DNA of 64,000 nt, taken from Bispira polyomma (lineage: Eukaryota). The position numbers and the translations under genes are program-made. Below, in pieces: positions 6,363 through 56,155 of this stretch (position 1 is the stretch's first letter; every line of letters starts with the position of its first letter). The notes under the pieces were generated by a model. That model was given only the letters and a program-made list of their open reading frames with translations, ran no database searches and was not told the origin of the DNA. The stretch lies in the NCBI GenBank assembly GCA_965649765.1, contig OZ287756.1, forward strand, positions 32,426,001-32,490,000, read 5' to 3'.

Positions 6363-8299
6363 TGTTCTTTTGCCTGTACCACGTGAAACCTACAAAATAA
6401 GTATCAAGTATATTTATTATAAAAATTTAATGATATATCTTTGCAAATTGTACTGCTCTGTATATGTCTATTGTATGCAGTGCACAAAAAGATGTCCTAT
6501 AAACCACCTATTGATTTTAGCTACAAACTCTCGAAACAAACAAACGGACACCATGATAATGTAGAAATAAAGTATGAGAGAGAGTGGTTTGTGAGGCGAT
6601 TACAGCATGAGCTTCGAGTGGAATATTGGAAAAGTTTTGAAACATAAAGCACATTTTTGTAAACTTTATTTCTATTATTAAGACCATCTATTGTGGTATC
6701 CCCTTAAAGTCAACACTATTACCAACAAACAAAACTATTTTCTAGTTTTTTAAGGTTACTCTACCATATTGGCATTTATTATTCTCCTAGATAAAGTTGG
6801 CGGACCTTTTTAGTACATGTAAAATATTACAAATGTTTATAGTTACTGACCTTAATAACTATATATTTATTATATCCTTCCCTTTGTAGTTGATGTACTT
6901 AAATAACAACTTAAAATTTTTAAAACTGTTTAAAAAAGGGGGTTGATATTTGTGTGAACTTGTATGACATCAAAACTTTTTTGGAGACTATATTTTATAC
7001 AGACATACACAACTATTTACTATGAACTAATCTGTTATTCCACATTAATGTGTATCCCATCCAACCAAACCAAGTTATATGTATTGGTGATAGGAGATGT
7101 CCCATGAACTTCCCTATCAAAGTGCTACATCACTGAAGTTGTCTAGTTGTGACATATTTTTTTAAGTAAAATCCATTCACACAATAATCATGAAACGAGG
7201 TCAATTGATTATGATATAACTCACCAGTTGCTCAGTACATATGACCCAGCATTCCCAAACCGACAAGTTAATAAAAACACATTGATACAATCAAACTTAT
7301 ATGTATAAAGTGTGTTCTTCTTTCAGATAAGCATGTCCTAATTTTCGTTCTTACTTTATCAACTAAAGTCATTAATGCTTATCTTGGTTTCGCTGGTCCA
7401 AAGTTATAATAAATAATACAAAAATTATAACAAAAATACTAACGCAAAGCGACATTTTAACTTATAAAAGATAAGCAATCAATTTTTTATGTGGCTGACG
7501 TGAAAACTGTCTCAAAAACAGTCCTAACACTTGTTTGGGTGTTTAACTGATTACCATATTCTTGAATATAAATGTAATTACAAGTCAGGTGACTGAAAAC
7601 ACTCCCCCCCCCCCCCTCCAAAAAATATAAAAAAATAAATTAAAAAAACCGTCTCTTAAAGTATGCAATCAAGTTAAAGGAATAAAATCAGAATAGTTTC
7701 CAAACTAGTGTCTTTATGTTCAAATTAATAAGGCAATTCGACTTATGCAAATGTACACTTTAATACCACAATATGCTCTTATAGTTCAGTAATGCTTATG
7801 ATAAAAAAATGTTAGATGTTTGGACACAGTTTTTGGTCCCAATTAATTTAGTGAGGATTTATTTTGTTCGTCACTTTCAACCCATTTCGTGTAGTGTCAT
7901 GATGGCTCGTTTACTGGCGGACAAAATAAAAACCAGGGAAGTTGGTCTAGGTTTTTTAGCAAGCACGACCATGAAGGGGTCTGCCACTTCAGTTCACCCC
8001 CACACATAATAAAATTTATAACTACTTTAATACCTGGGGGCGAGTCGACTAACTATTCACTCTGTCTATCCAGGCATACACACACCCATTCTCTTTATGT
8101 GGGAGAACAATACTTTTTCTCACCTTTTTCTAGTCTTCATTTGAAAACGTGGCCCTGAAGAAGCAACACCAGGGAAAGCTATATGTGAAAATCCACGTTT
8201 ATTTACATGAATATTATTATATTGGTTTTATGTTTTTAGTATTTTAGTTTATTTTGTTTGTTTGTTAATTTTGAGAAGTGCATATAACTACAAGGATAG

Positions 8300-9500
8300 G
8301 TAGAACAAAAAGACACCATCGGATAATAAGAAAAAAGAGACTAGTAAAAGCACTAGCAAAGCTAAAACTTCTCGACGGAAATTAGTGAACAGGGACGCCA
8401 GTGACAACAGCATCACGGAGCTAAAGACCCCGTTGAACCAGGTATTATCTGCTCAGTTCGTGTCACCCTTACTTCACGGAACTCAGATCCCCAATGGTTA
8501 CACAGCTGCCACAGTAGATCCTCGTTTACAAGGCCTTCAGCAGCACCATAACGTCCCCATAGGGTCACGTTCGGATGGTCAGATTATGTCTTCAATGCTA
8601 GTAATGCTGGACAAACTCTCGTAATCCAACGAACGGATCACGAACCGACTAGACCAGATGGAAACACGAGTAAGCCAGAATACTACTTTGCCAGCTCCAA
8701 CCACACAGACCAATCTGACTGTAGCACAGCCATTACCTGTAGTAACTGTACCATCACAGCTAACGGTCCCTCCTGCTCACGTCGACTATACAGCCGACCC
8801 TATAGTGCCCACAGTAGATGTATTGAAGTCACTACCCGATGTTCAAGCACTAGTTAACAAACGGCTGGCAGAATACGAGATCCAAGCACAAAAGACACTT
8901 GCCCAAGGTAAGCCGACCCCAAGTCAAAAGTCTGGGCGTTTTAATAGCACAGATGTACCGACGACAGATCCAAAATTGAGGTGGGCAAATGAAGGTTGGG
9001 TGGGGGGAACATCCAGGAAACGGCCCATGTTTGACCAGCTCTCACTACACCAGTGGGCGGCGGGGCAATTAGCCAATGCCATGCAGGTCACAGACCCGGT
9101 TATTTCGAAAGCAATGTGTCAGCAAGTAATTTTATCTCTTCAGGACGCTGCCTGACTTCCGTGGGAAGTGGTTCGTACTTCGTGGTTGCATAACATGCAC
9201 GAGATAGAAGAGGGTCGCCTGTGGGGTGACAACACCCAGTGGGCGTTGAATCGCCTCAACGCATCCCAGATGGCCATGGTGCAATTCATCTCACTCTCAC
9301 GGCTCGTACAACTCTCATAGCAGTCAGTCGTCCACTTCTTCCAGGACCATCTGTAAACTTTACAACACAGGCAAATGTAACAACACAGATCACGGGCAAT
9401 ACAGGCACATTTGCTGGCACTGTGCCACTGTGCTGCATAAGGATGTGGTGCACCCAGAATTCAAATGCTACCGGTCGAATTCATCCAAACAACATGAGGT
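8300..9500 (+). pseudogene. E1 gag-like ORF1 (disrupted)
   Basis: KSGRFN..RWANE..RPMFDQL block shared with other copies; C-terminal CKLYNTGKC..H..RHICWHC..HPEFKC zinc-finger module; internal stops. Confidence 0.8.
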
Positions 9501-9553
9501 CAAACCAAATAACAGCAGTTAGGAGATTGGCCAACCACTAGTGAAACGAACTT

Positions 9554-10947
9554 TTGGGAAAGTATATTGGGGGTAATAACAATAGTGTTGATTGTACTGT
9601 AGCATTAAATTCTAATAGAAGTGATTTAATTAGTGACTATCACAATTTGCATTTAAAAGCTAGCAGATTTGATAGAGCAAACATGACTAAGCTTAGGTTG
9701 AATAATAATTTTAAAAAACCTGATGTTGATGTAAAGTTAAGTAAATTAGATACTGTAAAGATCAGTAAAGCTATATGTAACCTAGAAGACAACTTAGCAA
9801 TTGTTAATGAACAGAAGTTACAACTTAGTTCAGCTGTAGTATAACAGCTGAAATTGCCAGGACGTTATCAAAGCTTGTAAGACAGAAACCAGAGTATTGC
9901 ATGAAGAGCAAGTACAATTTGATAGCAATAATGTACTATTGTATACAAATGCACTGCAAACAGTTGGTAGCAATAATGTACTCCCCCAGAAAAGGGAGTG
10001 TGATAACCAGATTAAGGTTAAGAACTGGTTAAACAAGCCTGCAATAACTGCCAATGCCACCATACAAGTGACAAATTGGTCACATAAGTTTAATTATTGG
10101 GATTACCCACTCCCAGTTTTATATATTAAGATCCAGAAACCAAAAGGACACAAACAAATGTCGCGTAATTCTAAATCTATCATACCCACAAGGGGCTTCA
10201 CTTAATGACAATGTAGATAAGCAAGAATTCGATGGTACAAAATTTGTTTTAAAATTTCTAACGATAGACGACATTGTGGCAGAAATACAAGTTACACCGG
10301 AAGCACGAATCATGAAACTGGACGTCAGAAACTTACGAGTTGACCCGGTTGATGCAATTAAGCTAGGGATCTGCTTTGGAAATGACAAGTACGTGGATCC
10401 AGCGGCAGCGTTCGGCTAGATCCACGGCTCGGCCGCTTTTCAGCATTGTTCGGACATGATTGCTTTTGTCATGGCGAAGAATAACCATAAAGTCTTCTGC
10501 TACATCGATGACTACATCTGCATATTGAATAAAGACACAGCAAACAGAGCATTTCATGAGTTACAGAAATTAGTAGATTCTTTAGGTCTCCCTACCAATC
10601 CAGACAAACTGTCACCCCCTGACACTAAGGCCACCTGTTTAGGGATAGATATAGACATACAGGCAGGAACCATCAGTATTACTCAAGAAAAAATGGAAGA
10701 AACATTTAAATTGTGTAAGGAAGTAACTAGGGACGATTTCTTGGCATTATGCCTTAGAAACATATGGCTGTTATCAGCCACTTATGACATACAACTAGAA
10801 ATAGAACACATAAAAGGCAAAAAGAACATTATAGCAGGTGCACTTTCAAGAGTTTATTCAGATCAATTTTCAAATAAGGAACAAACAGTATTAATGCAAG
10901 AGAACTTCGTTCCACTGAATTTGTTTGAATTTGATATTCGTTTATAA
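9554..10947 (+). pseudogene. E1 RT/RNase H ORF (internally deleted, stops)
   Basis: LKFLTIDDIV, FG*IHGSAAFQ, YIDDYI, CLGIDID, IEHIKGKKNIIAGALSR motifs. Confidence 0.88.
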
Positions 10948-10953
10948 TTTCGG

Positions 10954-11927
10954 GTTCCATTGAAACCACACAAGCCTTATTGGGATCTGCCTGGGCAAGG
11001 ATCAACACAGCCCTGCGCCAAAGACATTTTCAACTTACAATAGTCAATTTAAGACATTTATGGCCTTTACCTGCTTTGCTGGTGTGGAAGTTATAGATAC
11101 ACATATAGTAATTGCCTTCATGGAATACTCGGTACAGAATGGCACTGCACCTGCTGCAATCAATAATTACCTGTCAGCACTAAAATTCATGGCCAAAAGA
11201 TATTCCTGGAACTTGCGTATTTTTGAAAATAATACAGTGGCCATGTTTCTGAGAAGTCTAACACACAACTCTCAATTTAGACCACAACCCAGAGGGATAA
11301 TTGAAATCCACCACCTTATTCTTATCTCCAGATCATGTGTAATTCTCTCTGATCCAATTCTATATAGAGCCATATTTTTGTTATCATTTTTCGCTTTTCT
11401 TAGAATTTCTAATATTGCACCACATTCAAGGGCTCAGTTTGATCCTTCTAGGCACCTTCTAAGAAAAAATGTCATTTTTGGCCCACCAGGGGCCCACGTA
11501 ATAATAAAATGGGCGAAAAACTTACAGCAAGAGGGGAAGTACACATTGTACAGATCCCAAAACTACAGAACAAGACTTATGTCCAGTTAAGGCATTGCAA
11601 CACCTATTACATTCTAGACCAATACCAATTACATCTCCCCTGTTTGCTCCCTGTTCTCCACCACATGAATCAATCATAGATACACACATACGTTCTGCCC
11701 TCTCCTCAGTACTCACACACTCTGGAATTCCACAAAAATCTCACAGTTTCCATACATTTAGAAGATCTGGGGCAACTTTTGCATTTAATAATAATGTATC
11801 CCTTCAGAACATCATGGCTCATGGGCTCTGGCGTTCATCAGCGGTTTGGACATAATTAGAGAAAACATCACAGGCAGCTTCAACAGTCCCCCTCACCTTT
11901 GCTTCTGCTATTTCTTCTTCTTTCTAG
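10954..11927 (+). pseudogene. E1 tyrosine recombinase (frameshifted; catalytic Tyr codon is TAA)
   Basis: FLRISN (box I Arg), HTFRRSGA (HxxR), HGLWRSSAVWT* (Tyr position stop at 11853-11855). Confidence 0.9.
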
Positions 11928-13624
11928 TTTGGCTTGACTGTTTTAAAATTATTTCAAAATTTAAAAATTTACTATTTTAACCCTCTTTACATGTATACTA
12001 TGTCCTAACTTGTAAATAATAAAATCTCAAACCTCGAGTTTTAACACATCTTTACCCCACATATATTTAAAATACCACTTCTTGTTACCTCCTTAAGCTG
12101 GGCACACACTTAGGTGAACTGTAGCACGACCATGAAGGGGTCTGCCACTTCAGTTCACCCCCACACATAATAAAATTTATAACTACCTTAATACCTGGGG
12201 GCGAGTCGACTAACTATTCACTCTGTCTATCCAGCCATACACACACCCATTCTCTTTGTGTGGGAGAACAATACTTTTTCCCACCTTTTTCTAGTCTTCA
12301 TTTGAAAACGTGGCCCTGAAGAAGCAACACCAGGGAAAGTTATCCCACCTCCTCCCCTTTACCACAGCAATATAATAGTGCATTGTTATAATCCACGAAT
12401 AGACATGAGTGCGTTTGTGTAGCTTGCTTGAAATGTATTTGAAATTCTATATGAGGGCGTCAAACAGGATGTAGTATGTTAAGAGGTGATATTTAAAGAT
12501 TTGTGGGTAAATTCCTGGCACGCGCATCCACTTGACGCTGGTGGGAGTAGTCCGAGTCCGTGTGAGGGGTCGTGATCTCTAAACCTCCCGAGTTCATGTT
12601 TAGGGGGCCAGGGTAGAATAAGAACTCTGGACATCACAACCCCCCGCTAGGCGATTTGGTGCCGCAGGGCCGGCCTCCTCCAACTAGCCGCTTGTGGTTG
12701 CCCCTGCACAGTAACCTATAAAAATATGTTGAAACGTTTGACCAATTAAGGGGTACTTGACTTCATATACTGCAATACTTTCACACTGGCCAAGTACATG
12801 GCTGTGTTTTCAGTGATAAAGTAATCTGAAACGTTGGACAGTTTACTATGTGAACTAAAATATGTTATGATAATGGATAAAATCCTGGTGCTTGTACACA
12901 GGTTAGTACTGTTCTCTAAATAGAAGATATGCAACTAATATTTATATTATTTCAGTGAAAGGCTTTGACCTATTATGCTGTTTTTATTTGTAACTTTTAT
13001 GGCTAGTCCTATTTGTGCTGATTTGTGAACGTATATACTGTTATTGATGATACGTTTATATGAACTGTTATGGGTGTTTTAAAATTATTTAAAAATTTAA
13101 AAATTTACTATTTTAACCCTCTTTACATGTATACTATGTCCTAACTTGTAAATGATAAAATATCAAACCTCGAGTTTTACTACATCTTTACACCACATAT
13201 ATTTAAAATACCACTTCTTGTTACCTTCTTAAGCTGGGCACACACTTAGGTGAACTGTACTCTGCAAACCAACAACATTTCGCAAATCCAAAACTAAATT
13301 TCTAACATCCATGCCAGGGCCAAGATTGGAACCCATGGCTGTAGAGGTGGGAAGTGATTGTATTACCACTGCATTACCAGGACCTTTATTGGAAAAATTA
13401 CATGACAAAATGAAATAGACAGTACAATAGGAGCCTGATGGGCGTTGTGTGTGGGCACATATTTCAATATAGTGGTCGTGGCAGCCATATTACTTTTGGC
13501 GACAAAATCAATACCATGTTTCAAGTTACAAATATTGTACTTCAAACGCCAGGGTCCATTACAGCTGCACTATGTTGCACTAAAACCATGTTGTTAATGT
13601 TATGGTGTGCATCTATTTGATTCA

Positions 13625-13990
13625 AGACCAGTGATTTTGAAGTTTTAAGACAGAGATAACAACAATATACTTTTTGGTATTTTGTTCCGTGCATTTAGCA
13701 TCACCACTATTATTTTGACATTGTGTGTAATAACAAGCCATGATATAGCAGTGGTATTATTTAGTGCATAGTAAAGAACAATACTAATACACCCCATAAG
13801 GGAAACACTTAAGTAAATAACTAAGCATTACTATAGGATTAACCTTAACACAAATAAGAGGTCCAAACTTTAACTTAAGGGGAGGGTAGGGTGGAAACTA
13901 TTTTTTCACGTCCTTCCCAGTTGGTGCTTCTAAAGTAGTTTGGTGCAACATCCCTGACTTTTTGGTCACAGAGCATGTTTGCTATCTCAA
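13625..13990 (-). repeat. Detached 3' terminus (end of A2, spacer, B2) of element E3
   Basis: 13625-13795 is a direct repeat of 19457-19626, which follows the E3 YR stop; adjacent - strand gaagcaccaactgggaag resembles the E1 A-repeat end gaagcaacaccagggaaag. Confidence 0.7.
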
Positions 13991-14169
13991 TTACGTCCTC
14001 AAAAACCTACTACAGTGTAGAAGGAGTTGCATACTTAAAGTAGCACACCCCAGTCAATCTTAGGGAAAGTTAAACATTTAATTAGTTACATTTGGCCTGG
14101 TTGGCCTTATTTAATACAGTGTAAAATATAAAATCAAGATAGACAAGGAAGGTCACCTTGCCAGTGTCA

Positions 14170-17100
14170 CACCTAGAAAGCAAAACTTGAAATAGCTAAA
14201 ACCTTTTCTGCACTCTCTGGCCTCCTTGTGACTTTAAATTCCTCCCCACATGTGGGTTGTTTGTTAGTTGTAAAGTAGAAGCTGAAGAGGGCTGGGCGCC
14301 ATATTGGAGAATATGAATTCTGTTTCATTGACTGAAAAAGGAAATATTTTAATAACTTTATACTTCTTTTTCGGAAATTAAGAGTCAAGCCCGCAAAAGT
14401 CGCTTCAAAGATCTGATATTATTACAGGATGGGTCTGAAACCAGCTTCGACAAAAACAACCAGGAAAAGTAATAGAAGTAGTATGGACAAAAGTGAAAAT
14501 TGTGAACAAGTCTGTTAGAAATAGTTCACCACTAAATGGTGCCACGGGAGGTACTTAGAGACTTCTGAAAAACTTCTGAAATGCAAAATAAATCTGTATC
14601 AGACAAGCTCGATGAACTATTGTCAGTGGTGGGGTCGCAAGTTAAGTACCAGGACGAATGTCTACCTAGACAGACACAGAATAAGGTGGTCATGAGAAAC
14701 ACGAAGCTGCCTTCATTTGAAATCCTTAAAAGTGACTCCCATATCCAAGCTGAAATTCACAAGAGGCTGCAACAGTACAATGGTGCTTCACGTCTGGAGG
14801 GTAAAGGTAAATGCTACTATTCTAAAGTATGGTCGCTTTCGAGCGGGCATATACAAAGTTAAAGTGCAATGTAATTGGCCCCAAGACTATTGTACAGTTG
14901 TTCATTCACATAAGCAGCCCACTTACGATGATATGCCCCCCCATTCAATGAGCACAGGGTTCACTTTGTTGCACACTTGAAGAAGGTAACCTTCAGTATA
15001 GGCAAGCTATGTTCAGTTATTACCTAAGCCTTATGCATGATGCAGTAGAGTTAGGGTTTGAAACTGCCAAGAAGGCACACGCGGCAGTTCTGAAAGAGAT
15101 TGAAAAGGGACGTGGGAAATTGGGAAAATGGTGAGTTGATTAAAAAAAAATAAGAGCTCAAAACACCCAGAAAGTCTCGCATGGTAGTCAAGGTGGTTAT
15201 GCTGAGAGTAAGGGCATAGAAACTAGGGTTTGTACACTCTTTAACAAGGGATCTTGCAGGTTAGAATGAGTTCATGTGACAAAAGGGGTGAAATACGAAC
15301 ACTATTACACTTACTGCTGCAGAGAAACACGTGGCACGACCACCCAGCGTGTAAGTGCGTGCATATGAAAAATGACAACAAGGAAACAAAGAAAGAACAG
15401 CAGGTTTAACCCAATAAGGTTCAAGGTGTCTGCTGGCTATGACGGTATAAGTCATATCAATACTTCCAACCTAAAAAGCAAGGCACTTAGTACTAATTTG
15501 CATGATACTTGTATTAATATAAGTTGAAATAACAGAAGCAGTCAGCTAAATGCTGCAGCTGAAATATTTATCCCCAAAGCACATTAAAAGGCAACGTGTT
15601 CAGCTTAATCCAGCGGCTGCAATATTTAAATCAAATAACGAAAAAAGTTCAATGTCGTTTAGTGAATCCCTGGTTACAGCTTAATGATACTGGCGTTAAT
15701 GCTTACGCCTATTCATGTATTAGTATAAACAGTGATAGTTGCACCTCCGTCTTAGACGTGATTGAAAATAGTTTAGTTGATACTTGGTCACAGCCTAATA
15801 ACAACAATATCAGTGCTTATGCCAATTCACGTATTAACAATATTAGTAGTGGCTCAAGAGCTATGTCATATATGGACAATATATCTAACAATGGTTTCAC
15901 ACACACATATGGTAGTGATACAAATGTTTATAGTGAATCAGGTATTAGTAGAGGCGATAATGTCTTTACAAAAAAATATCAGCTGTTTTAACTGCAGTAT
16001 TGAAGCTTGGTATGCAAAGGCTAACAATAACACCTGCAGCAATATTGGTAGTAGTATCAATAACAGTATTGGAAATGTTAACATATGCAGTGGTACAAGG
16101 AAGACCACAGGGTCTCTATTGCTCTACTGCACATGCTATCTTGCACATAACGCAATAATTCCAGCTTGCAACTCTAACGGGAGTCGTATACCTTGCTCCA
16201 TACTCGATCCATCACTAGAAAACTATTAAGGACCATACGGCTCTCCAATCAAATGTAAAATCTGTCTAGGGATCAGGTGGTCTGACTTAAACACGTGTAT
16301 ATGGGAAGTAAATGACCTTGCCAAAAAAAACAGTAAATGTCATAATGTCCTCGAAATGTATAATGATTCAAATGCAGATGTAACTAAAACGGAAACAATC
16401 GAATTCAAAGAAATCAATATTGATGGAAGTTTTAATGATTTAAACAGTTATAAAAGGGGAATGGAAGGTTGTACAAAGTATAGTGACTGTCATAATGTCC
16501 CCCAAGTGTATAATAGATTGAATGCTGACGTACGTGTCACAGAAAAGTGTAATAATTTAAACTGTATACGGGGAATGGATGAACTCGCACAATGCTATAA
16601 GTCTCATAATGTCTTCAATATGTATAATAGTTTGAACACAAACACACACTCAGCGGGAAACAATTATTTCATGGAGTTGAATTCTGATGACAGTCGTAAT
16701 GATTTTAGCTATGTACGGGGAATGGATGGCTTTACAGAGTACAGTAAGTGTCATAATGTCCCAAAAATGTATAATAGTTCCAATTTAGACATAAGTGTAC
16801 AGAAAAGAAGTGAACATACAGAATTGAATTTTAATGACAATCATAACGTCTCCTTTACAGGTAGCAATAACCATAATGCCCACCCGATATCAAATGATAC
16901 TACAAACGGGCAGCAAAGACATACCGTGCTCCTGTATAATAGTAGTAATCATAATATCAAAATGGATAAATATAGCAAATGTTCATATGTTAGTAAAATC
17001 AAGAAGCAATCAGCTGATTACCATAATGGTTCTAGCCATAGCTTTATGGGAAATAAAGTACTTTGCAACTACAACTATACGGAACATACTGGTGATTTTG

Positions 17101-19100: not shown

Positions 19101-19456
19101 CCATAGGTAACGGTATGGCTGGTTAACTATTATATATATATATACACACATGTAAGGCAGAATGCTCTAAAACTAGTACAGGTAACTGAGCTGAACGCTT
19201 CCCAGCTATGATGTAATATAGTTGTTAATAGATGTTAGATTTAACAAATAGATATAATAATGTTAACAAGCAGTTTATAACTAAGCTGTTGTAAACAAAG
19301 TTAATGATATTAGCAATTGAAAACTTAATTGTTAGCAGTACTAGCAAGTTGATGTGAAATAAAGGGTATATATGTTATGTTGTAAATAAACACTAAATAT
19401 GTTTTACATTCGTTGTTCTCATTGGTTTCTTTCCCATAAGACTAACCTTTGAAAGG

Positions 19457-22450
19457 ACCAGCGACCTTGAAGTTTTAAGACATAGATAATAAAAATATAC
19501 TTTTTGGTATTTTATTCCATGCATTTAGCATCACCATTTTATTTGACATTGTGTGACATAATAACAAGCCATGATATAGTAGTGGTATTATTTAGCGCAT
19601 ACTAAAGAATAATACTAATACACCCCAAGTTAAACAGTAATTTTTGAAAAGAATTAGTTTTTTGTTTTATGAAAGGATAGATTTAAAAGTGTTGGGAATA
19701 AGGTTGAGGTTTTGCCCAACCTGAAAATAGGACCAGACGTCTGACGTCCAAGTGCCATGGGATTGTAAACACTGAAGGGGAACATTATGTTGAAACAGCA
19801 GGGATGCTCCTGTCTGAATGCACGGAACCCAAGTGTGGAATTGTTGAGGTCCAAGAATGGCCAAAATGTCCTTTAATACATATCAAACTTTAACATCTGT
19901 TAAAACTTGATATTGGTAGCCACAGGCACTACAAACAAGGAGGACGCCAGTAGCGTTGGAAACTCACTATACATATTAGCCACGGCCTGAACTGGACATA
20001 AAGGTGAACCCGATAATTGGGTTGTAACTGAACATTAGTTTGTCGACTCTGCATGGCCTTAGTCAATTTAACACTGATAACTAGTCCAGGATTTGGAAAC
20101 TTAACATTACGCCTGAGAAGCAAACGCTCACTATCATACATATACACAGAATGTGAAACTAAATTGCTGATACAAAATAACCCAAAGAAAGCTATCAAGA
20201 ATATTGCCTTATAGACACTACCAAAAGGTTTACAATCACACTGTACACAAATGTTCTTAAGGTCCTCGACCCCGAAAATGTCTTTTACCTTGATATGTCT
20301 AGGAATATTATTATTAATAGACCTGAGTAACATGACTACCTGCACATTGCTAAAGACTTCCAAGTTCAAGTCAAACCGCCGGAAATGATGTTTAAGTGCA
20401 GACAAAAAGTTTTGAATTGTAGGGTAAGAAAGCCCTAGTTGAACCAAATGTTCAATGTAAGCCAAAATGACACTAAGTGAGTAGTGTGGATGAGGAACTG
20501 AGTTGGTAACACAAAATTTAAGAAAATGGGACAATGTTCGACTATAAAGAGCCCGAGTCCTGGGCTGAAAGGCAGATTTGGCTCGAACTTGAGCTAAAGA
20601 CAGCTGTGGTCGTAATCTATGCGAACACAAAAAGAAAACATACATAACGAACATTAACCTTAAATATCCCAATTAAGGGTAGTTGCATGGCAGGGGACCT
20701 GACTGAACGGTACAAGAGAAAACAACTCATGAAACTTAGTCCTTTTTCCTGAGTCTGAATACCGAGATAAGAGGTCAGCCCCTACATTGTCAATTCCCGG
20801 CACATGTCTAACCTGAAGTGTGATATTATAAGTGGCTGGGAGTAACCATATGTGCCAAGCAACTTGCAGACCTATCCTGTCGATGCCTATGTGGGAAAGG
20901 TGGTAGTTCCTTACTGTGGGCTGCTGGTTTCAGTGCAGAACCTTGATCAACTGTATGCAGTGTTTTCTCCAGCGTTTGCAACTACCCGTCCCAATATAAC
21001 CTAAACAGATACTAGAGGGGTATTTCCCCCTATTGAAATTTAAGATATTAACCACTGTAATGTTGTCAATATATATAATTATATTGTTGGTTGAAGGCAA
21101 CTATGTGGTGAGAGCAGTATATACATTAAGCATTCCAAGATGCACAATTATAACAGGATGATCAATTAACTGATCCAACTCTAAGTGTTCATAAACTGCC
21201 CCTAAACCAAATAGGCGTCCGTCCATATACACCACTTCACTCTAAAGAACAGGTTGGTCATGTAAGACTACACCATTAATCTGATTAAGAAATTGAACAA
21301 ACCACTTCATGCCAGCAATGAATGACTTAGGAAGCTTAAACCTTCCAGTATCAGGGCAAGTATGCAGTACTTGCAAGATATGGTTAACAGAAAGTCTAGT
21401 TGGTATAACACACTTACTAATGTATAATGGGTTTCCTACAATAATTTACATTTGTGCTTAGTGCCATAGCCTCTGCGACTCCATTCTACACAAAGTTCTG
21501 TAATTTCCTTAAGTTTGTCAGGAGGAAGACTAAGAGTACCTGCTGTTACATCAATTTGTAAGCCCAAACATGTGATAGCTTTGCCTAGAACTTCCAATCT
21601 GGAAGGACTCACTGGAAGGCCTAGATCCGTGAGTAGTTTTAGTAGGCAATCAAAAGTTGTAGTAGCCTCTAACGAGCTATGAATCCCAATTAAATCATCA
21701 ATATAGTTGTACACCACATAACCTTGCTGAGCCATTATATACCTAATACTGTCTGTCATCCTCTGGAAATAATGACTTTCATGCCGTAGGCGAAAGGGTA
21801 CTGCTTTGTCGATATAGTATGCATTTTGCCAATATAAGCCTAGTAAGTGGTAATCATGAGGGTGCACTCTCAAATTACGAAATGCCAAAAGAAGTAACAA
21901 TTAGAACCACATTGCTTAATATAGTCCACCATGTGATCCACTGTTGGATATGTAAGTACAAGGTCTGTATGAAGAAACACATCTTTAGAAACACGATCAT
22001 TGACTGATTGATCCCTTGGCCATGACAAATCTATAACGACTTTCCTGTTTTTTGAGTTAGGTTTATGTCTGGTCAGCATGGAGGAGATATATAAATCTGA
22101 GGACATCCCCATAGGAATCTTCAAGAGCTTCAAACTTGCATTCAGTTTGAATGTAGTGTGTAATATGATCAGGGTAACCATCTGCTGAAGGATGGTTATG
22201 TAGTTGCTGTGTCAATATAGATTTGTCCTGCTCGTCAATGGAAAACCCAAACTCTTGTAACTGTACTAATTGAGTATACTAGAGTTCAACCGCCAAGGTA
22301 CATTTATTATTACTAATGGCCCCATCTATGTGCATGAGATGCTTACTAAGGTGCAAATTTAAACTCTAAATTTAAACTGCCTTGGATATTAACAGTGGAC
22401 AAATTGTCCATTATAATAACTAGTCAAATTACTGGTGTCAAGAACCAAGT
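19457..22450 (-). mobile_element. YR retrotransposon E3 body (RT/RH, YR, B1; 5' end missing)
   Basis: RKVVIDLSWP, LTYPTVD, YNYIDDLIG, YR ORF 19929-20672 and HGTWTSDVWSY; B1 19457-19626. Confidence 0.88.
20875..21015 (+). mobile_element. 5'-truncated S1 SINE inserted in the E3 RNase H region
   Basis: tcgatgcctatgtgggaaaggtggtag...cccaatataacct matches the S1 body. Confidence 0.85.
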
Positions 22451-22489
22451 CACTATTAGTGTCACTATCTCATTGATAAGTCAATGCTG

Positions 22490-22730
22490 TTTTTTTTATT
22501 AAAATGGTTCAACCATATTTTAGAGAATTACGGATGCAAGTGAGAGTTATAATGAGTGCAATGCAGAATTAAATAGACGATTTTTATGTATTTCTCTGCC
22601 CAGTAAAATTCAGAAAACATATCAAAGATTGCAAGAAGTTCTTTCCAAGCTTGGGTTAACCGCAAGTCAGAAAAAAGGCACGGAAGATATTTGTCTAGGA
22701 AATATATTTAATACAGTGGAATACACTCAG
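22490..22730 (+). pseudogene. Short RT fragment of another YR retrotransposon
   Basis: Translates as GSTIF*RITDA..IDDFLCISLPSKIQKTYQRLQEVLSKLGLTASQKK, similar to E4 RT (GSAIFQRLSDA..IDDLLCCSVPSKIFHTYERLQALLSELGLTLSQKK). Confidence 0.75.
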
Positions 22731-22967
22731 TCCTCCCTCCCCTCCCCCCCCCCCCCCCCCCCCCGCATAGTGTTAAAGGTTAAGATTTGACCTGGCCATG
22801 ATATGCGGCAGTGATGGTAAAACTTGTAATAACACATAAAATAACACAAGCTTTAACATTTCTTTTGGGTTTTTATTATTACATACACTATTACATATAC
22901 TACAACTACTAAGTCCTCTCTACTTAAGTTTACCCCTAACTTAAACTTAACTTTTTTTAACTTATGG

Positions 22968-25900
22968 CACCTGCCATGCGGTGTGTGTTACCTAACTTGT
23001 GTCAGTCTTAAGCATGTTGGGTTTAAGTTAGCTTAAAGCGAAAACACCGTTTTTATGTTGTTTATGTTAAGGTCACCTTAATGTGAGGCTGAAGTTTTAT
23101 ATTAAGGTGACCTAAAACGGAGGACTTTTTACTATGTAAACTAATACCAACTATGTACACTAACCTATACTTGTATGTGATGTATAAATAAAATTACCTA
23201 AAATGAACTAAAATACTAAAACAGATAAACATTCCTACTCTCATTTAGTAACTAAATATAGAAAGAACATACAATAGAAGCAGTCTTACAAAGACTGAGC
23301 CTTGAAAAAGGCTGTTTGCTCACTGGAGCTGGCCTCTAGGGTGGGAGTGGCACTTTTCAATGTACACACATCAAGAGTTAGTTCCAGAATGAGGGCCCAC
23401 AGCTTTCCCCACCTGCCATGCGGTGGGTGTCACCTAACTTAAGTCAGTCTTAAAGCATGTTCAGCTTAAGGTTGGCTTTAAGCCACAGCACCGTTTTTTA
23501 TGTTGTTCATGTTAATATCACCTAAATGTGAGGCTGAAGTGTTATGTTAAGGTGACCTAAAACTGAGGGCTTTCTACTATGTAAACTAATACTAACTATG
23601 TACAGTAACCTATACGTGTATGTAATGTATAAATAAAATTGCCCCCCCCTCCTTACAAAAAATAGTGGTTATGCTGTTTTAGGTGTAAGGTTTGTGTGGA
23701 AAGCAGAAGCCACTAAACTAGCTGTGTGTGGTGTTCTCACTAAATACAGCCAACAAATGTTGGATCGCCAATGCAACACCGATGAACTTTGATATGCTGC
23801 AGATCCACCTTGTGGTCGAATGCCCACCAGGCTGCAGAATGTCTGAGGGCATGAAACCCATATTTGGATGGTGTGAGGTTGATCCGAGTTATGGCTTTAG
23901 TCAGTGTTTTCCTTACTTGGTATGCCGTTACCACTACTGTATTGGCGTGATGGACATACTGGAATAAAGGAATTTTGTTAAGGAGGGTTCCTTTAGGTAG
24001 TATAACAGATAGACACAATATTTTTCAGAGTACTGACATTAATGACCTTCTTAAGTTTGACATGCAATGGTGCGACCAATAAGGCCTTCTGATAGTAGGC
24101 TATCCCGGGATCACTAAAAGCCTGTACTGGCACATTATGGATGATTGATTGAGCCTTAATGGCCGACAGGTAGTTAGCCATTTGAGCTGGTTTGACTGAG
24201 TTATAGTGTAGCAATTCTAGAAAAAAATCAGAGGTTAACCACTGTGACCTTGGCAAGGGGTTGGTCAATGAAGGCAGTAAAGTCCTAGTAAATATCTGGT
24301 ACATGGCATTATAAGCCTTGGTCATGGAGCTACAGAAGGCCAGAGGTAGCTTTTTGGCATTGGTGAACAGCAACCGCTGGACTGGGGTGACATCTGAAAT
24401 ACATTACACTACAGGGGATACTTTACTTTATATTTACTTGTAAGTAATCCTGGTTTACATGGCACCACAGAATGTGGCCTACCAGGTAATTGGGCATGAT
24501 TTTGAGGGATATATGACCAACGTGATAACAGGTCAGCCACCCTGTTATTTTCACCTAATAGGTGGATAACCTTAAGGTCAACATCGTGTTGACTTGCTAG
24601 CATGAAGATGGTGCAGGCATATAATGCTAGGACACTGTCTCTTGTTCTACCAGTGGTTAAAACACTGATCACTGCCTGGTTATCACATTTGATTTGTATT
24701 TTTTGGGCATGCCACATGGCCCCCCATAGCGGAAGAGCCACAAAAATGTTGAGCATTTCCAGAGAAGCAATATTTTGAGATTGTAGTTCAGTTGGTATAG
24801 CCAGGGTGTACTCTTGGTTGGCTTATATTCCTCCCATGCCCATTAAGCAGGCATCCAGTTCTACCATAGCTGTGGTGGGTTTGTGATAGAAGAAGGATAC
24901 CCCATTGCATTTTTCGAGAAATAACCATGGTAAATCCTTATACAATTCAGGACTTATGGTGAATGTTTTGCTATAAGTATTGCTTCTGATTTGTTGCAAC
25001 ATCCTGTTGGGGAAGAACCTGGCATACCTGACACATTTAGACTTATACAATAAGAAACCAAGGAGAGATTGGATCTCTGTTTTGGTACACCATTTTTTGT
25101 TAACCAATAGCTGGCATATAGTTTTAATGGATTTTAATTTGTCCTCAGGTATGGAGGTGCTGAAGTCCATGGTATCCACCACAATACCCAGGCATATAAC
25201 CCTGGTATGTGGAGGTACTAACTTCTTCTGGCTAAGGGTTAACCCTAATTCGGACAGCAAGGCCTGTAAACGTTCATATGTGTGGAATATTTTGCTGGGA
25301 ACTGAGCAACATAAGAGGTCATCAATGTAATTCAAGATTGTATGTCCTTCACCTTGCATGATGAACCTAATGGCATCTGAAAGTCTCTGAAAAATGGCAG
25401 ACCCATGTTTGTACCCAAAAGGCAAGGAGCCGTCTATGTAGTAGCCCTTCCAAAAGAGGCCCAGTAAATTTATATCCCCAGGGTCTATTGTGACGTGTCA
25501 GAAAGCCCTGCTTACATTTGCCTTAAACATAAGAGATCCCCTTTCCATTTGCAGTACTTGGTTGGTTATGGTATCTGTGGAGGGGTAAGTAAGTACGAAA
25601 ATTTTATTCAAATAAGCAGATTGGGAGACAGCAGAATTTACAGACTCACCCACAGGTCAGCTAAGGTCAATAATGACCCTTCTGTTATTCGAACTTGACT
25701 TATCTCTGGTCATAAAGGGAGATATATATAAGTCAGTAATAGGGGGTTTATCACAAGGGCCATATATGGCCCCCATTTCAATTTTTTCCTTGAGGTAGTG
25801 GTCCACATGGCTGGGGTACTGCTTAGCTGAAAGGTGGTTAATTTGGTCTGACTTGGCCTTACATTCCCTATTATAGTCAAGATGAAACCCAAATTTAATT

Positions 25901-26280
25901 AGCAGGGGGAGTTTCCAGTCCCAGTATTGTTTGAGATATGTCCCCCATACTTCATATGTTGTGACTTAACAAGTACTTGAAACTCTTTGTAGTTATGACG
26001 GTCATCTTGTCTGAGGTCTCTGTGGAGGTGGAAAATATCTGAGTATAAGTATTGGTCACTGGAGTGGTCAGCAATTTTTCCCCCATTTCACTAAGAGGAA
26101 TAAAACCGAATTTCAATTTGTTTTGACTGTCCCACAGTTTATAACTACTACAGTGAGGGGCATCACGAATGGGCTGTATTTTATTTCCCACACTGTATAA
26201 GTCTGAGGTATATTTGTCTGCATTACACCCACTGTGTACTAGAATCCCCGTTGGTGAGTTAATTGAACCTATCCCTATAT
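22968..26280 (-). mobile_element. YR retrotransposon E4 (RT/RH, YR, B1-A2-spacer-B2)
   Basis: RT LNYIDDLL, RH LDACLMGMG / CDNQAV / HLLGENNRVADLLSR, YR FHALRHSAA; ~230-bp direct repeats at 23411-23640 and 22968-23196. Confidence 0.9.
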
Positions 26281-26289
26281 GTTCTGTTG

Positions 26290-29200
26290 CAACTCACGTT
26301 TGAATTAAATGCTACTGAAGCACCAGATCTTCTAAAGTAGTGGAATGAATGTCCCTCATGGGGTATGTTTATGTGCGTGAGAATTTTTCTGGAAGCAATC
26401 TTGAGTTTGTGTCAGTGAGGCATTGACTTTTATTAAAAGGATAACTCAGTAGTGGAGTTCTGCCTGACATTGGAAATTTTTGAAATAATATTTTTGCTGC
26501 AGATACAGGACACAGCCAAGGATTGCTCAGAAAGGGAAGTTATATAATATCTGTGTGTGACCTGGTCTGGTGAATGCCAGGGTGAGAAAATAATATGTCA
26601 TCCCTGGTTATATGTCTGGTAGGGTCAAATGAGTTGCCTGAACTGGTGGTAAGATTTGAGATTCTCAAAAAGCAAAAATAGGCAAATTAGAAAGCTACCC
26701 AAAAAAGTTCTGGACAATGTAGGAATCTATATGCTTTTGAAATTTCTACCAGCTGATTGAGGTCGAAGACACCCTTGACCTTTAATGTAAAGTTTGATGA
26801 TAACTCTACTGACTTTTGGAATAGAGGTATTCTTTGGTCATATAAACGAGGTTTTAAGATATTTAAAGCTTTACAAGAGTGTCGAATAGCAGACAAATAG
26901 TTTTTTATCACTTTAACTGACTTTTGGAATAGAGGTATTCTTTGGTCATATAAATCAGGTTTTAAGATATTTAAAGCTTTACAAGAGTGTCGAATAGCAG
27001 ACAAATAGTTTTTTATCACTTTATCTGATAAGCCTGTTTGTAGTAGATATTCCATGAAGGTAATAATGGTAGAGAAACTGAAGGTGTCCTCAAGTTGATA
27101 GTATACTGTGAATGCTAGAAATAGTTGAAATTGGCTGTCGTACTGTTTGGTAGTCCTTGGTCTGTGGCACTGTCTAATCCTCTGAACTGCACTTCATAGC
27201 AGTGGTCTAGCTTTTTCTGTACTACCTGTAATCATATTAAAGTGTCCATTAGCTACATGTCTACTGTGACATCATACATTTCAAGATTTCTTACAATTAA
27301 GTCTTTTATCTCATGTCATTATGCTCTTGTTCAAACCATCTTGATAAACAGTGTGCAATGATATTGTCTTTTCCTGGGATGTGTTCTATCACCAAGTCTA
27401 TGCTGTGATTAGCACATAATAACCAGCTATTTTTTTAATATAAACTTAAGTAATTGTCTTTTGTTTTAAGCGACCGCACTACAGAAACCACCGCCATGTT
27501 ATCAGATTTATTTTATTCGTTTGTTTTTCAGTAATGTCCCCATAATTTTAATGCAATAAGGACACACACCATTTCAAAATGTACTATTCACAGTGAATCT
27601 GTTAAGAACATGAATAAAGCAGCTCTAAAAGCCTTAGTGCCCCACACACCACGTATACCAGAGAGACATGTCTCGCCATGAAAGAGTATATCATCTTGTC
27701 TATTCTCATGAGTATATTTTGTAGTCCCGTTAAATTCTTTCAGAAGCTTTAAGAACCATTTAAGATCTTTGTAAAATGCGACTGTCAAGTGTATTCAATT
27801 ATTGTACTGCTAGTTCCGAAGTAGAGCTAACATTCTGTTCATGAATGTACGTGATTGCTTGACGCATCTCTGAATGTACAAGAGTCTCCCTAAGAGCGAT
27901 TGGTACTTTTTTTCTGTACTTTTTGTAACATGGCAAAATTTACACAGATTTCATGTATTGAATTCAACTTGTCCTCGTCAATACTGAGAGTCTCGCGTTC
28001 TATATCAATGGTTATGCCCATGCATGTCACACGTTTGCTGGGTGGTACTAATTTATTGGCATTTATTGGAAGGCCTAGTTCTGTTACTATATTTTTCAAA
28101 GTTTCAAACGCTGAGGTGACCTTATCTTCCTTCTCAACGATTATGTAATCGTCTATGTAGTTGAAGACTTTGTAGCCTTTTTCACTTATAATATATGTGA
28201 TGGCATCTGATGCCATCATAAAGACAGAAGTGCCGTGGGTAAGGCCAAAAGTAAGACTTAAATCAATGAAATACTGGTCCTTCCAGAAAAAAAGATAACT
28301 TTAAGCAATCGAGGGGATCAACACATATATTCCTGAAAACCTATGCTATGTCCACCTTTGTTAAGGTTGCCTTACTTCCTAAGTACTTAATGTGTGTCGT
28401 GATCAATAGTGGGAAGTTTTAACTTTAAGTCGATGTCGTCATATTTTTTTATGGTACAGTCATTTACTGACCTACCCAGAGGGTGGGACAAACTTTAGAT
28501 TATTTTATGTTTGTTGTCTTCTTTTAGTCGAGATATTAAATGTGAACAATGTATGTCTCCGTGCAATGTACCTTCTATTGGTCCAATTATTGTACCTTTG
28601 CTAGTTTCTGTTCTAAAGTATTTGTCAACCCTTTTTGGATATGAGAAGTGGTTTTTAACATTTTTTCAACCAATCTGTTCCTTTCATACAATGAAATGGG
28701 ATATCCAAACTGGAGATAATCAGTTAGGTCCTTTTTGATAATTGCTAAGATATTTTTTCCAATTTTCAATTTTTAGGCCACTCTTTAATGGAATTCTGGT
28801 CATTTTGTCATTGGGTTGATTTGTTTCTTTTATTATTTCAGCTACTTCTATCAACTTCTCATACGAGTCAATATTTACTTCTTCTCTTTCAGGTCCCGTA
28901 AAAGTTCTATCAATATACTGTTCTTGTATAAAACCATATGTTCCGTCGTCCTTATGTGAACTCACCGTACTGTTAGTTGTGTCATTATTGTCCCATATAG
29001 AGTCAATATTCATAATGTTCTCAAGTATGTCAATGTTCTCACACTTGTCTGCTCTGTCATTTTGTCTGTTTGTATTTTTGTTATTATACACTTTGTTCAC
29101 ATTTTTCATTTAAATTTTGTTGCTACACTGTGTACTTTTTTATTTTCTCTCCTACAAGTGTCATCAATAATATTCAAATAATATTGTGTCATTTGTCTTT

Positions 29201-31400
29201 GTACGAGTATGTGTCACACTGTTTGTACAATGTCTTGTGTCTGTTGCTTTATATGTGTCATTCTTGCCATACTTGTGACTTGTGTGGTAACAATTTCAAT
29301 TGACATCGTAGTACAGAAAGTAATAGGTCATATTCGTGCCAATGGAAGGTTGGATTTGTGTAGTGTCACTTGACCATCTACATTAATCCAGTTGTATACT
29401 GCTGAAACACATGCATTACTTCTACATACAATGTAACATACTGGAACACTGTTAGATCTTTGTGCATATTCACTAGAATATACATCTACTGTCTCAACAT
29501 TGTTCTTTAAAATGTTCTGATTGTCATTGTTCTTAAAGTTGTCCACAGGCTTATTATACTGATCATTGTTACATAAAACGGTCACATTGTGACCCACATT
29601 CTTTTCATGTATAGTATTATTTGTACATAATACTATATTATCATTTACTCGTTCAGAGTCAGATAAACTGTTTTTTATTCTCACATAAATTATCAAAATT
29701 ATTCTTAATGTCACTCCCTCCAATTTTGTATATAAACTGTTTGCAATCTACTGAGATTTTATTGTCACAAGCAGTGCATCCGTCACATATGGCTGTGGGT
29801 GGTGTGAGCTGTGTTCTTGGTAGTTGTGTCTGTATGCGGTCCGTCTTCCTATTGGGTAGTGGTAGTATTGTTATCTGGCTTTCTATGTATTTTGAAGCAT
29901 TTCGCTTCCGGGTGTTGGTTCTGGCGTTTTGAAATCCGAAAGCAGTTGGGGCAGATATGTTTGAATGTTGTCATGTTCCCCTCATGATCACCCTTATGTT
30001 GACAGGCGTTCTTTTGGTAGTGGCGACACAGGATCTCAGACTTACTGTTAAGCGTGTTCGAGGACTTTTCTGTGTTAGACGAATTTGAAATCAGTGCTTG
30101 CGAATTGGACAAACGATTCATAGCCCATTTGTTTTCGTCGGTCCAGCATAACCTTCCTTCTTCTACATCATGCATGCTGCATGCATTCGCACCACGTGCT
30201 ATCTTCCAAGTAATATTTGCACTGTCCCTTAATGAGTCCCCTAACTGTTTTAACATGGCTGCTGCAATTACTTGATTTCTAGCCCGAAGAATGTTCTGGA
30301 TTTGTCCAGTCAATTCATCAAACGATATACTCTTTTTTGAAACACCTGACAAGTTTCTCTCATTTGGCTATCTCATTATAGGGTCAGAAATACAAACTTC
30401 AGATATATTGTACCGACCTGATTTTTTCTTGGTAGACTTATCCTGCTTGTACTCAGTTGTGGCCCAGTTGTCATATTGGGCAAGGCATCTGCTGATTTTA
30501 TTTTGGATCATCGATGACTGTAAACTGGTCTCGGAGGCGAGACTGTGCTGTATGATGCGTGTCTGCATGAAAATCTGGAACTGGCAGTTGAGATGTAATC
30601 TGAGGAGTATGCTGAGACTGTAATCGCGACTGTGAATTCTTCGTAGTGCCATTACTTAAGATTAAACCCTATTTCACTGAAGCTTCTGTGTTTCTATCGA
30701 CCTCAGTAATATTTTGAGTGGAATCGGTTGGGTGAGTGAGAACCTTACTGCCTTTTAACATGGACATATTTTCTTGAAGTTTCGACATTGTTTTTAAGAT
30801 GGTATACATCATAGATTGTTGTTCGTGGTAGGCATCACAGTGGAATGAATCAGTACTTACTGCTGTGGGGGTTGCTGTTGATGTGTCAATGTTGTTGCTT
30901 GGCTCAGAACATCCCAGTATATCGTGAAGTTCTTCTAATTCCAATTCACGTGTACACCTCTTTCCTTCAGGCTTGGGGTGAGATATTTCACAACGTGAAC
31001 ACTGTGCTAATGATGTCGCTTGATGTAGCTTGTCATTTCTTTCCCCTTCCTATTTTATATCAATGTTATAACACACAATCTGTAACGCCTAAAATCTAGT
31101 AATATAATTCCATGTAAATACTAAAAACTTGTAGAAACCTTTGTTATATTTCACCAGTTTTTATAAATTTTCCCAATATGGCATAGATTTTTAGCTGTTA
31201 TTTGGTCAGCTTCTGAAGTTTTAATGCCCACATAATAGAAAGGGCGCCAAAACGGTTGGCTGACTCAGCCTGCTTATTGGCTGTAGCTAAGCGTTAGCTA
31301 TGCATTCTGATAGGCCAAGCCCAGTAAACAACTTGTCTTGTAAGTTATACAGTAAAGTACTATATTTCAGTGACTGAGAAGCCATGCTTTTGCAATGATA
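26290..31400 (-). mobile_element. YR retrotransposon E5 (gag, pol, YR; 3' repeats lost)
   Basis: gag 29849-31050 (KSGRYN, CRHYQKNAC..HICPNC..HPEAKC), RT FNYIDDYI, YR HYFRRSGA near 26320-26345; in-frame 108-bp tandem duplication 26808-27023 in YR. Confidence 0.9.
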
Positions 31401-31689
31401 TACAAATGTACTAGCTGTGGGATGGGGGGAACGCCCCCTGTCATCTATTTGGTTGTATGTGCTGACAAGATCCTCAGACTCAGACGTATCAATTGCAATC
31501 CAAGATGGCCGAACATTACAGAAAGGCCCTTAAAAAATAGCTTCTAAAGATTTATCTTGGTGAATTAGCTTTCGGAATGCATTTAAAATGATTAAGTAGT
31601 CATTCCCCTTGAATAGCTGTGATTTTTAAACAAAGTTATAATTGTTTACTACTTTTATGAATTTTAGTTGCAACCCTATCCATTATTTT

Positions 31690-32760
31690 CGTTTCTACCT
31701 TAAATACTCTGTACCCAGGAAGCCGGAAATAGTAAAATCACTCCAAATTATGGTAAATTTGCAAGTTCCTTCTTGAAAAAATCTGCAAGTAACCCCCTGG
31801 TTTTTGACTTAAGATTGAGGTTTGCTTCCTTTAGAAGATCCCAAAGTACTGGGAGCTTTTGCGGCCGGGAGAATGTGTCGCTGGGCGTGGGCTCTGCAGA
31901 TTCTGTTTACCTTGTCCATGTCTGTCCATTTTAAGTGATCCAACTCCATATTAGTGAGTAGGATTGCATGGGATGCCTTCGCAGCGTCCCACGAGAAGTC
32001 GTAAGCATCATCCATTAGGTTGGATAGGTAGTCTAGCATCGCCTTGCGCATTTCAGTCAATTTCTGTTCCTGTACACACCGATAGAAGCCCGGCCGTGAA
32101 CTGTAGATCATCAAATGTAGGCCTAATTTTCTTATTGCCAGTCAAAACAAAGTTCTGTGGCCAATCTACACTCCTTTTGTTTGAATATCAGCCCCCCTCC
32201 CCTCTGCGATTTAAGTTTACCTGAGTTGGTCAATTGTTTAATTGCTGAAGTTGTAGCAATCTCTGGTCCACTTGAAGTTGAAGGGCCAAGTTCGATCGTA
32301 GGTAATCCAGCGTGGGTACAACGGGCTCTGGTTCACTTGTGCTACTAGGGTTAATTGGTGCACACAGTGCTGCCTTTGCGACGCAAACGCGCTCCTCCAT
32401 GCTGTTCATCTTCTGGTTAATTGCCTGGAGTTGTAGTAGGACCTGATTGGTTACTGAGGGGTCATCCGCAGCCACCACATGGTCAGTGAGGGTCAATTCT
32501 GATTCATCGTGTGCTGGCCTTTGTCTTTGAATGCAATTTTTCGCCCCTGGGTGCTCGTGAGCTCCTGCATATTTTTTACAGTTGTATTTCTTTCCTTTAT
32601 GCATGATGAGGTATATTGTTTGAATTTATGATTGTCCTTTCTTTATTTAGTAGGGTAGAAACACAAAAATCCCCAAACTTGTAAAAATACTCTATCCTCT
32701 TAACAAAATTTTCAATAATGGCACTGTTACAGGCGCCAATGCTTTATATAATTGCATCCA
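31690..32760 (-). pseudogene. Orphan gag and leader of a YR retrotransposon, probably the 5' part of E4 displaced by E5
   Basis: WPQNFVL..RPTFDDL, MDDAYDFSWDAAKASHA, CRFFQEGTC zinc finger. Assignment to E4 is inferred from strand and order. Confidence 0.75.
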
Positions 32761-33284
32761 TAACCCCTAGTGGTTTTATTTTTACCACGTTAGACTGGTA
32801 TCAGAACTGAGAGTGGTGCTGCTGCGGCATTACCCCACCATACTCCTCATCGGCCGATTATGTTGTTTCAAGCTGTTTCTACAATTTACCAACTTTTTAG
32901 CCATTGATACTAAACAAAGGTCGAAGAATGTGGAGGAAATGGCTTTGAACTGCCACCCCACCCCTCTGAATTTAGTCTGGTACTCCAGCATAGAGGCTGT
33001 TATCTAACATGGACAATTCAAAGAGAGTCATCCTGCCCTTATGTGATACTGATGACGAAGAGGATCAAATAAATAGACTATGCCATATGCCTGAATGCCC
33101 TGCTGACGTATTTAAATAATTTAGCATGCTAAATTATTGCGTGGTATCTGCCTGAAGACATTCCACTGAACAATAGATTTCTCTATCTTGTGAAATTAGT
33201 CATAACTGTTTGCTAGCATACTGGTTATTGTGCATATACCCTATTGTCAAAATAGAGTACAATCCTGGGGCGAATGTGCTAACT

Positions 33285-55595: not shown

Positions 55596-55742
55596 CCCCC
55601 CCCCCCCCCCCACAGTAAGGAACTACCACCTTTCCGACATAGGCATCGACGGGATTCGAACTCACGCCGCCCAGAGGTGAGAGACCAGTGATTGTGAAGC
55701 GCAATGCTTGCTAACCACTAGGTTACCGCGGCCCCAATAAAG

Positions 55743-56155
55743 ATGATGGTATAATTATATGTATATATATGTGCTTAAATGCCATGTAATTATATCTTTC
55801 ACCAGAAAGTCTCTGTTGGATATACAGAAAAATATGTATCAAGTGTAATTTAATAAAATTACATTCATAAGAACTAGATGATGAAACATTGTAGTCCACC
55901 AAACATTTAGGTGTCTGTGCGTCATGGAATCAGACTGATTAACATGATAATCAGTCTCAAACAGAAGATTCCATGACGCACAGACACCTAAATGTTTGGT
56001 GGACTACAATGTTTCATCATCTAGTTCTTATGAATGTTATTTTATTAAATTACACTTGATACATATTTTTCTGTATATCCAACAGAGACTTTCTGGTGAA
56101 AGATATAATTACATGGCATTTAAGCACACATATATACATATAATTATACCATCAT
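55743..56155. repeat. Long inverted repeat: 189-bp arms (2 mismatches), 35-nt loop containing a 10-bp hairpin
   Basis: 55743-55931 is the reverse complement of 55967-56155; loop agactgatta-acatga-taatcagtct. Confidence 0.95.

Follow-up and report, generated by a model that had tools for sequence, protein, structure and literature searches.

The question raised by this locus of Bispira polyomma is how some 25 kb of DNA came to consist almost exclusively of Ngaro retrotransposons. The DNA analysed (the window, 64,000 nucleotides of contig OZ287756.1) belongs to a contig of 68 Mb, in a genome of 1.04 Gb. An earlier note had described a nest of diverged Ngaro-like elements in both orientations, with almost no host DNA and few other transposons between them, and had proposed that the elements either integrate preferentially into one another or had been caught in a transposon trap. 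The description is borne out. The nest occupies positions 7957–32840 of the window (24,884 bp) and is formed by seven Ngaro bodies, numbered E1 to E7, which account for ~97% of its DNA. The only DNA between elements is 363 bp long, and non-Ngaro repeats within the elements are one of 147 bp and one of ~254 bp. Three bodies are on the plus strand and four on the minus strand, and every one of them is broken. The RT cores of five compared families share 36–44% identity. Copies in the nest are 73–94% alike to their closest relatives, and the youngest families (Y and E3-like) are missing from it.

The elements were assigned to Ngaro, in the order DIRS, using the window ORFs and intact relatives. 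In both sets an ORF encoding tyrosine recombinase (YR) lies downstream of reverse transcriptase and RNase H (RT/RH), and pol stops after RNase H, immediately ahead of the YR ORF. RVT_1 scores over the Pfam cut-off in the window and in relatives and is accompanied by RVT_3/RT_RNaseH matches; Phage_integrase and SAM-like matches are mostly under the cut-offs, and the YR motifs 'FLRISN' and 'H-x-FRRSGA' are seen. No match to a DDE integrase (rve) was found in the scanned ORFs of the window and relatives, and none to the methyltransferase Dam (PF05869) at E ≤ 0.1 in nine ORFs of intact relatives (three families: Y, E3-like and E4) and the window. Split direct repeats of the A1-ORFs-B1A2B2 plan are complete in E1 and represented by B1/B2 pairs in E3 and E6; the plan is complete or nearly complete in relatives of E2 (L040), E4 (L016, L017) and E5 (L045). 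The repeats are direct, not inverted terminal repeats as in DIRS1-like elements. By their predicted domains, their repeats and the lack of a methyltransferase match, the elements conform to the definition of Ngaro given in the available text of PMC9210276, PMC3783388, PMC4157794 and PMC8547959.

Like the known Ngaros, as far as the accessible parts of these sources describe them, the elements have gag, RT/RNase H and YR ORFs and split direct repeats, have neither methyltransferase nor DDE integrase, and show no visible target duplication; solo A-B forms are shared with the Ngaros of Cafeteria (available text of PMC8547959). Differences include the intact three-ORF copies without a visible hydrolase ORF, whereas amphibian Ngaros are described there as having one, the unmatched A2-B2 spacer in several families, the many copies that end at B1, and the copy number, which reaches thousands.

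Searching the genome with the RT of E4 gave 13,199 first-look candidates, 150 of which were scored, and two degenerate YR motifs had 2,915 and 3,117 exact matches genome-wide, compared with 0 and 5 for the reversed controls. This abundance makes Ngaro-like elements one of the major classes of repeat in this genome; for Ectocarpus, the available text of PMC12477816 gives Ngaros up to 2.45% of the genome. Copies in young families are mostly 97–100% alike (99–100% in one family), and genome-wide only a minority of copies is nested. Smaller nests (L015, L169, and L080 with L199 and L206) were met elsewhere without being sought. Ngaro coding DNA was present in six of 60 random 10-kb stretches and covered 2.2% of these 600 kb, a background that represents only about seven elements. 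In the nest it covers 12,168 of 24,884 bp, or 49%, so the comparison with the background suggested in the earlier note gives anything but equal densities. Uniform placement predicts 0.29 bodies in 25 kb, or 0.6 if the background is taken at its upper bound; the corresponding probabilities of seven or more are 3e-8 and 3e-6. Under a 5- to 8-fold local rate the probability rises to 0.0006–0.014 per interval, the interval before deletions having been longer.

Ends of the elements were fixed from relatives fetched out of the same genome. E1 (7957–13257, plus strand) retains both ends, as fixed from relatives. Its A1 (7957–8182) is followed by gag-RT/RH-YR, B1 (11939–12121), A2 (12122–12343), a spacer and B2 (13075–13257), all on the plus strand, with identities of 97.7% for A1/A2 and 96.2% for B1/B2. 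The ORFs of E1 are broken, with internal deletions at ~10145 and ~10724, and its host DNA is non-Ngaro. The DNA between elements comes next (13258–13620) and has no match in the element libraries. The 3' end of E3 (13621–14017, minus strand) comprises the final 5 bp of B1, followed by A2 and by a B2 whose terminal bases are gone. It is separated from the body of E3 (19445–22466, minus strand), with RT/RH, YR and B1, by E2 (14018–19444, plus strand), a Ngaro of the A1...B1 form without A2-B2 and with an RT-YR deletion at ~18400. Positions 14017 and 19445 are contiguous in two relatives, L031 and L032, which represent the empty site; the insertion point is 5 bp before the B1/A2 junction of E3. 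B1 and B2 of E3 are 89.7% identical, its 5' half (A1 and gag) is gone, and a SINE-like high-copy repeat of 147 bp (20874–21020, minus strand) lies inside its RNase H region.

A deletion joint of E3 adjoins E7 (22467–22727, plus strand) on the left. E7 is a decayed RT fragment of another Ngaro (tblastn E 1e-16, 47% identity to the RT of the E4 family). E6 (22728–23993, minus strand), of a further family, consists of the YR C-terminus and B1-A2-B2, and its intact B2 end is lodged antisense in the RT of E7; the identity of B1 and B2 is 87.6%, and the letters of the B end are the same as in relatives L052 and L053. The inner part of E4 (23994–26294, minus strand) contains RT/RH and the YR N-terminus. 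The joint of E4 and E6 is a deletion with ~9-bp microhomology that connects non-equivalent YR residues, ~134 and ~225; a homologous crossover within YR was considered and rejected, the positions being ~90 codons apart. E5 (26295–31404, minus strand) interrupts E4 between gag and RT and is oriented like it. Its A1 is intact, its 3' end was removed by a deletion that also took DNA of E4, and its YR contains a 108-bp tandem duplication. The 5' part of E4 (31405–32840, minus strand) consists of A1, which abuts non-Ngaro DNA, and gag, and includes the high-copy non-Ngaro repeat of ~254 bp (31497–31750). The six bodies distinguished in the earlier note were thus recovered, E6 being a seventh that it had missed, and its orphan gag (31751–32840) was rejected as a separate element: gag and RT are colinear in seven of ten relatives, and the gag is the 5' end of E4 itself, split off by E5.

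The junctions in the nest are accordingly of two types, with three insertions of Ngaro into Ngaro (E2 in E3, E5 in E4, and E6 in E7) and three deletion joints (at 22466, 23993 and 26294). Among the six elements with an intact end, E2, E5 and E6 entered a Ngaro, and E1, E3 and E4 entered other DNA.

The nest is probably situated in an intergenic interval. A long sulfotransferase-like ORF (5061–6389, minus strand; PF13469, E 1.4e-7) lies 1.6 kb to its left, with the nest upstream of it, and reads away from it; a weak sulfotransferase-like exon (42989–43276, plus strand; PF00685, E 6e-4, under the Pfam cut-off) also reads away from the nest. These two pieces gave no alignment to each other. Out of 112 ORFs listed in the flanks, 72 were scanned and one had a Pfam match. 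The contrast drawn earlier, with SINEs and other classes in the flanks instead of Ngaro, needs correction. An A-repeat fragment is present on the right at 47600–47723, and an E5-like element extends from ~62 kb to 3 kb beyond the end of the window; the commonest SINE-like repeat has one copy in the nest and 21 matches per 600 kb of random DNA, that is, it occurs in the nest at the background rate. The share of high-copy non-Ngaro repeats is 0.6% in the nest; in the right flank it is 10%, a figure inflated by local duplications. Beyond the window, Ngaro coding DNA is absent from the 100 kb to the left and present in three of ten stretches in the 100 kb to the right, which are mildly rich in it.

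If Ngaros preferred one another as targets, as the earlier note had suggested, new copies should favour existing ones, an expectation that the genome-wide counts do not support. Gaps were counted between 125 elements with recombinase motifs on another chromosome (C1: 0–39.9 Mb). Nesting should leave gaps shorter than 8 kb, of which one was seen with 3.1 expected; 26 were shorter than 25 kb (9.3 expected) and 42 shorter than 50 kb (18.0 expected), and the richest 500 kb held 16 elements (1.6 expected). Clustering outside the nest is hence seen at the scale of 10–500 kb. The maximum on C1 was three motif-bearing elements per 25 kb, a count not comparable with that of the nest given that the motifs detect well-preserved elements only and recover one of the six YRs of the nest. 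Of 141 flanks at mapped element ends, 132 entered the comparison, the loci of the window itself excluded; those dropped were four own junctions, two tandem copies, one duplicate, one inverted duplication and one stray B. Ngaro coding DNA lies within 1.4 kb in 5/74 flanks of young families, against a background of 4.5% (P 0.24), and in 15/58 flanks of older families; for the difference between young and older families P is 0.003, with flanks of one element non-independent and age confounded with family. Ten young copies gave 5/20 for 10-kb flanks vs 6/60 (P 0.13).

The excess of Ngaro neighbours in older families is regional, because a similar enrichment is found away from the copies. Among 5-kb stretches at 7–12 kb from older copies, 6/19 contained Ngaro vs 8/120 (P 0.004), where two of the six are doubtful (L271 may be a host already seen in L225, and L272 has RT only), leaving otherwise 4/19. 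The 19 stretches came from ten E2, seven E4 and two E1 copies, out of at least 35 copies that existed. Other copies of the E2 family were nested in three cases out of ten. The target motif is short and degenerate, and is met throughout the genome: T or A occupies position −2 in all 60 of 60 5' flanks, in a genome with an AT content of 0.65, and A or T occupies +1 in 61 of 72 3' flanks. Position −1 is G in only 11 of the 60 5' flanks. Together, the gap, flank, regional and target-motif results point to regional gathering of Ngaros, not to self-targeting.

We consider it probable that the nest arose as Ngaros inserted repeatedly, in the ordinary way, into a region in which they gather, and that deletions followed. 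In large genomes, nested piles of retrotransposons in gene-free intervals are built by successive insertions and trimmed by deletions at microhomologies. The nest resembles such piles in its successive sense and antisense insertions and in deletion trimming with microhomology; that it consists of Ngaro and not of LTR elements reflects the standing of Ngaro as a major class here. The recombinase would join the B/A junction of the element to short T/A-type sites, as in the published model. As elements filled the gene-free interval, the frequency with which a newcomer struck an older element would scale with the space already occupied. Deletions may then have removed the 5' half from both E3 and E6, the greater part of E7, and the 3' end from both E4 and E5, and host DNA that once lay between the elements was likely lost too; the apparent absence of host DNA would be due to these deletions. 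As to the regional excess, the age trend leans towards retention, with copies elsewhere purged, over a regional bias of insertion. Some observations run against accumulation. Seven bodies per 25 kb is the densest stretch sampled, three of the six mapped nest elements sit in another Ngaro, copies of the E2 family are often nested, and the density of Ngaro here looks more like a sharp local maximum than like a domain of wide extent.

An alternative, which we regard as unlikely, is that certain Ngaro families direct their insertion to Ngaros already in place, their recombinase binding the resident B/A junction or Ngaro chromatin. It draws on the position of E2, antisense and exactly 5 bp before the B1/A2 junction of E3, in a site empty in relatives (by our rough estimate, ~11/6000 for one nested event by chance), and on the B1/A2 junction being a copy of the circle junction of the recombinase in the model published for DIRS (available text of PMC7192593). 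In six families all B ends read ACTG or AATG and all A starts are T, and the B end has the bases that are most frequent in targets at −4 (A) and −2 (T); the Ngaro neighbours of older families also fit. The recognition of terminal sequences proposed earlier is thus compatible with the insertion of E2 in E3, but it does not recur. Out of 44 matches to the E3-family junction, 30 were fetched; two were unrelated, one was the window itself, and the other 27 were intact, so that the junction of the window is the sole one struck among 28 viewed. Another 16 elements have a Ngaro neighbour, and none was seen at a junction (host junctions were locatable for those families that the element library contained); the insertion points of E5 and E6 are far from any junction, tight gaps are not in excess, and the E3 junction, read on its reverse strand, in itself matches the general target motif well. 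Seven young A1...B1 copies were inspected as possible elements split by insertion into the junction, and the displaced A2-B2 was found in the next 10 kb in none of the seven, so this interpretation was rejected. Other candidates for junction insertion were also rejected: at L244 the junction is the element's own B1/A2, L080 is located ~500 bp before A1 of its neighbour, and neither L013 nor L107 is at a junction. Published parallels are of two kinds. Self-insertion of DIRS-1 in Dictyostelium, with centromeric clusters, is reported in the available text of PMC7192593 (citing Cappello 1984), PMC5633606 and PMC3266345; the clusters of D. discoideum are similarly dense, with YR retrotransposons inserted in one another, but formed by one family with inverted repeats at centromeres, whereas here there are seven families 1.6 kb from a gene. 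In Cafeteria burkhardae, Ngaros of the same superfamily target endogenous virophages and their types differ in target preference, 91% of one type being in the target element (available text of PMC8547959), whereas young copies here have Ngaro neighbours at the background rate. Among titles and openings of abstracts, with subscription papers and supplements outside the search, we found no report of Ngaro-into-Ngaro targeting or of Ngaro nests.

It is more doubtful still that the locus is a transposon trap, for instance a dual-strand piRNA cluster, which would be retained for the silencing of active Ngaros by antisense fragments. The seven families in both orientations, all broken, and the sharp local peak with 100 kb free of Ngaro on the left could be read in this way. 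However, the mixed orientation is that expected at random, smaller nests exist elsewhere, and the youngest families, Y and E3-like, are not represented among copies only 73–94% alike to their closest relatives. Other active classes would be expected in a trap as well, whereas two non-Ngaro repeats are all that was recognised in the nest, and the SINE-like repeat that is commonest in the genome occurs at background. No RNA run was among the public holders listed for this sequence, a result neutral on expression and piRNAs. That the tight packing is an artefact of assembling repeats is hardly credible. Every part of the nest is repetitive and has relatives elsewhere, but the divergence between families is too great for one to be mistaken for another, and short-read contigs of public DNA bridge positions 14017 (a piece of 5,042 bp), 19444, 22466 and 32840 without differences; these contigs may derive from the sample of the assembly and are a check on the assembly only. 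Among the contig pieces listed, none bridges the joints at 22727, 23993, 26294 and 31404, and none skips the whole nest, as an empty allele would. Contig depth is ~14 in E2 and 15–16 in the right flank, and 7000–7550 is hardly covered.

Ordinary accumulation followed by deletion therefore remains our preferred reading, and the nest is most likely an ordinary case of a known type of element. A more far-reaching version of targeting, in which B1/A2 junctions of distant families serve as landing sites and some families would steer to Ngaro-rich DNA and so build multi-family nests, has in our opinion very little chance of being correct. If true, such cross-family targeting would supply a substrate on which the Ngaro recombinase could be tested; according to the available text of PMC7192593, the specificity of the DIRS-1 recombinase was without experimental study as of 2020. 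As it stands, the nest carries little weight, and what it offers is a well-resolved case of nested Ngaro decay, a measured target motif, and regional clustering of these elements.

Along contig C1 of the same genome (G000), the density of well-preserved Ngaro recombinase motifs is several times the mean at G000:C1:34.6-35.2 Mb and 43.4-43.7 Mb, and the motif peak on this contig is up to 16 per 500 kb versus 1.6.

To the right of the nest, an E5-like Ngaro element on the forward strand with an open gag of 346 aa occupies window positions ~62000-64000 and extends past the right window end (fetched stretch L184); another E5-like element lies 16-22 kb beyond that end (L186-L187). A lone A-repeat fragment on the reverse strand (47600-47723) is kin to the young Y family, with 77% likeness. 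Other repeats in the flanks comprise a 21-bp minisatellite (2131-3163), whose array is interrupted by a SINE-like repeat, a LINE endonuclease fragment (49336-49872; PF03372, E 7e-5), and a recent 2.1-kb tandem duplication (50473-55743) that contains SINE-like copies, is 99-100% alike among the pieces listed and adjoins a 198-bp inverted repeat (55734-56164).

Two further arrangements were observed elsewhere in the genome. A 3.95-kb inverted repeat at L029 (G000:C10:32353500-32363499) consists of a young element present twice in head-to-head orientation; the two copies are 99.98% identical and have lost their 5' ends. At L230:1009-1500, a lone B repeat that lies within a short tandem array precedes an E1-family A1 repeat by 312 bp.

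E2 (14018-19444) carries ~147-bp repeats in the pol N-terminal region (16330-16836), which maintain an open Asn-rich frame and are common to its relatives. This element ends at B1 without A2-B2, as do seven of the 19 near-identical young Ngaro copies having a 5' end, which stop exactly there (L075-L081). Solo A-B forms are present too (L214, L222, L229). The B1-ending copies and solo forms could have arisen by B1/B2 recombination, by recombinase excision at the junction or from a shorter circle.
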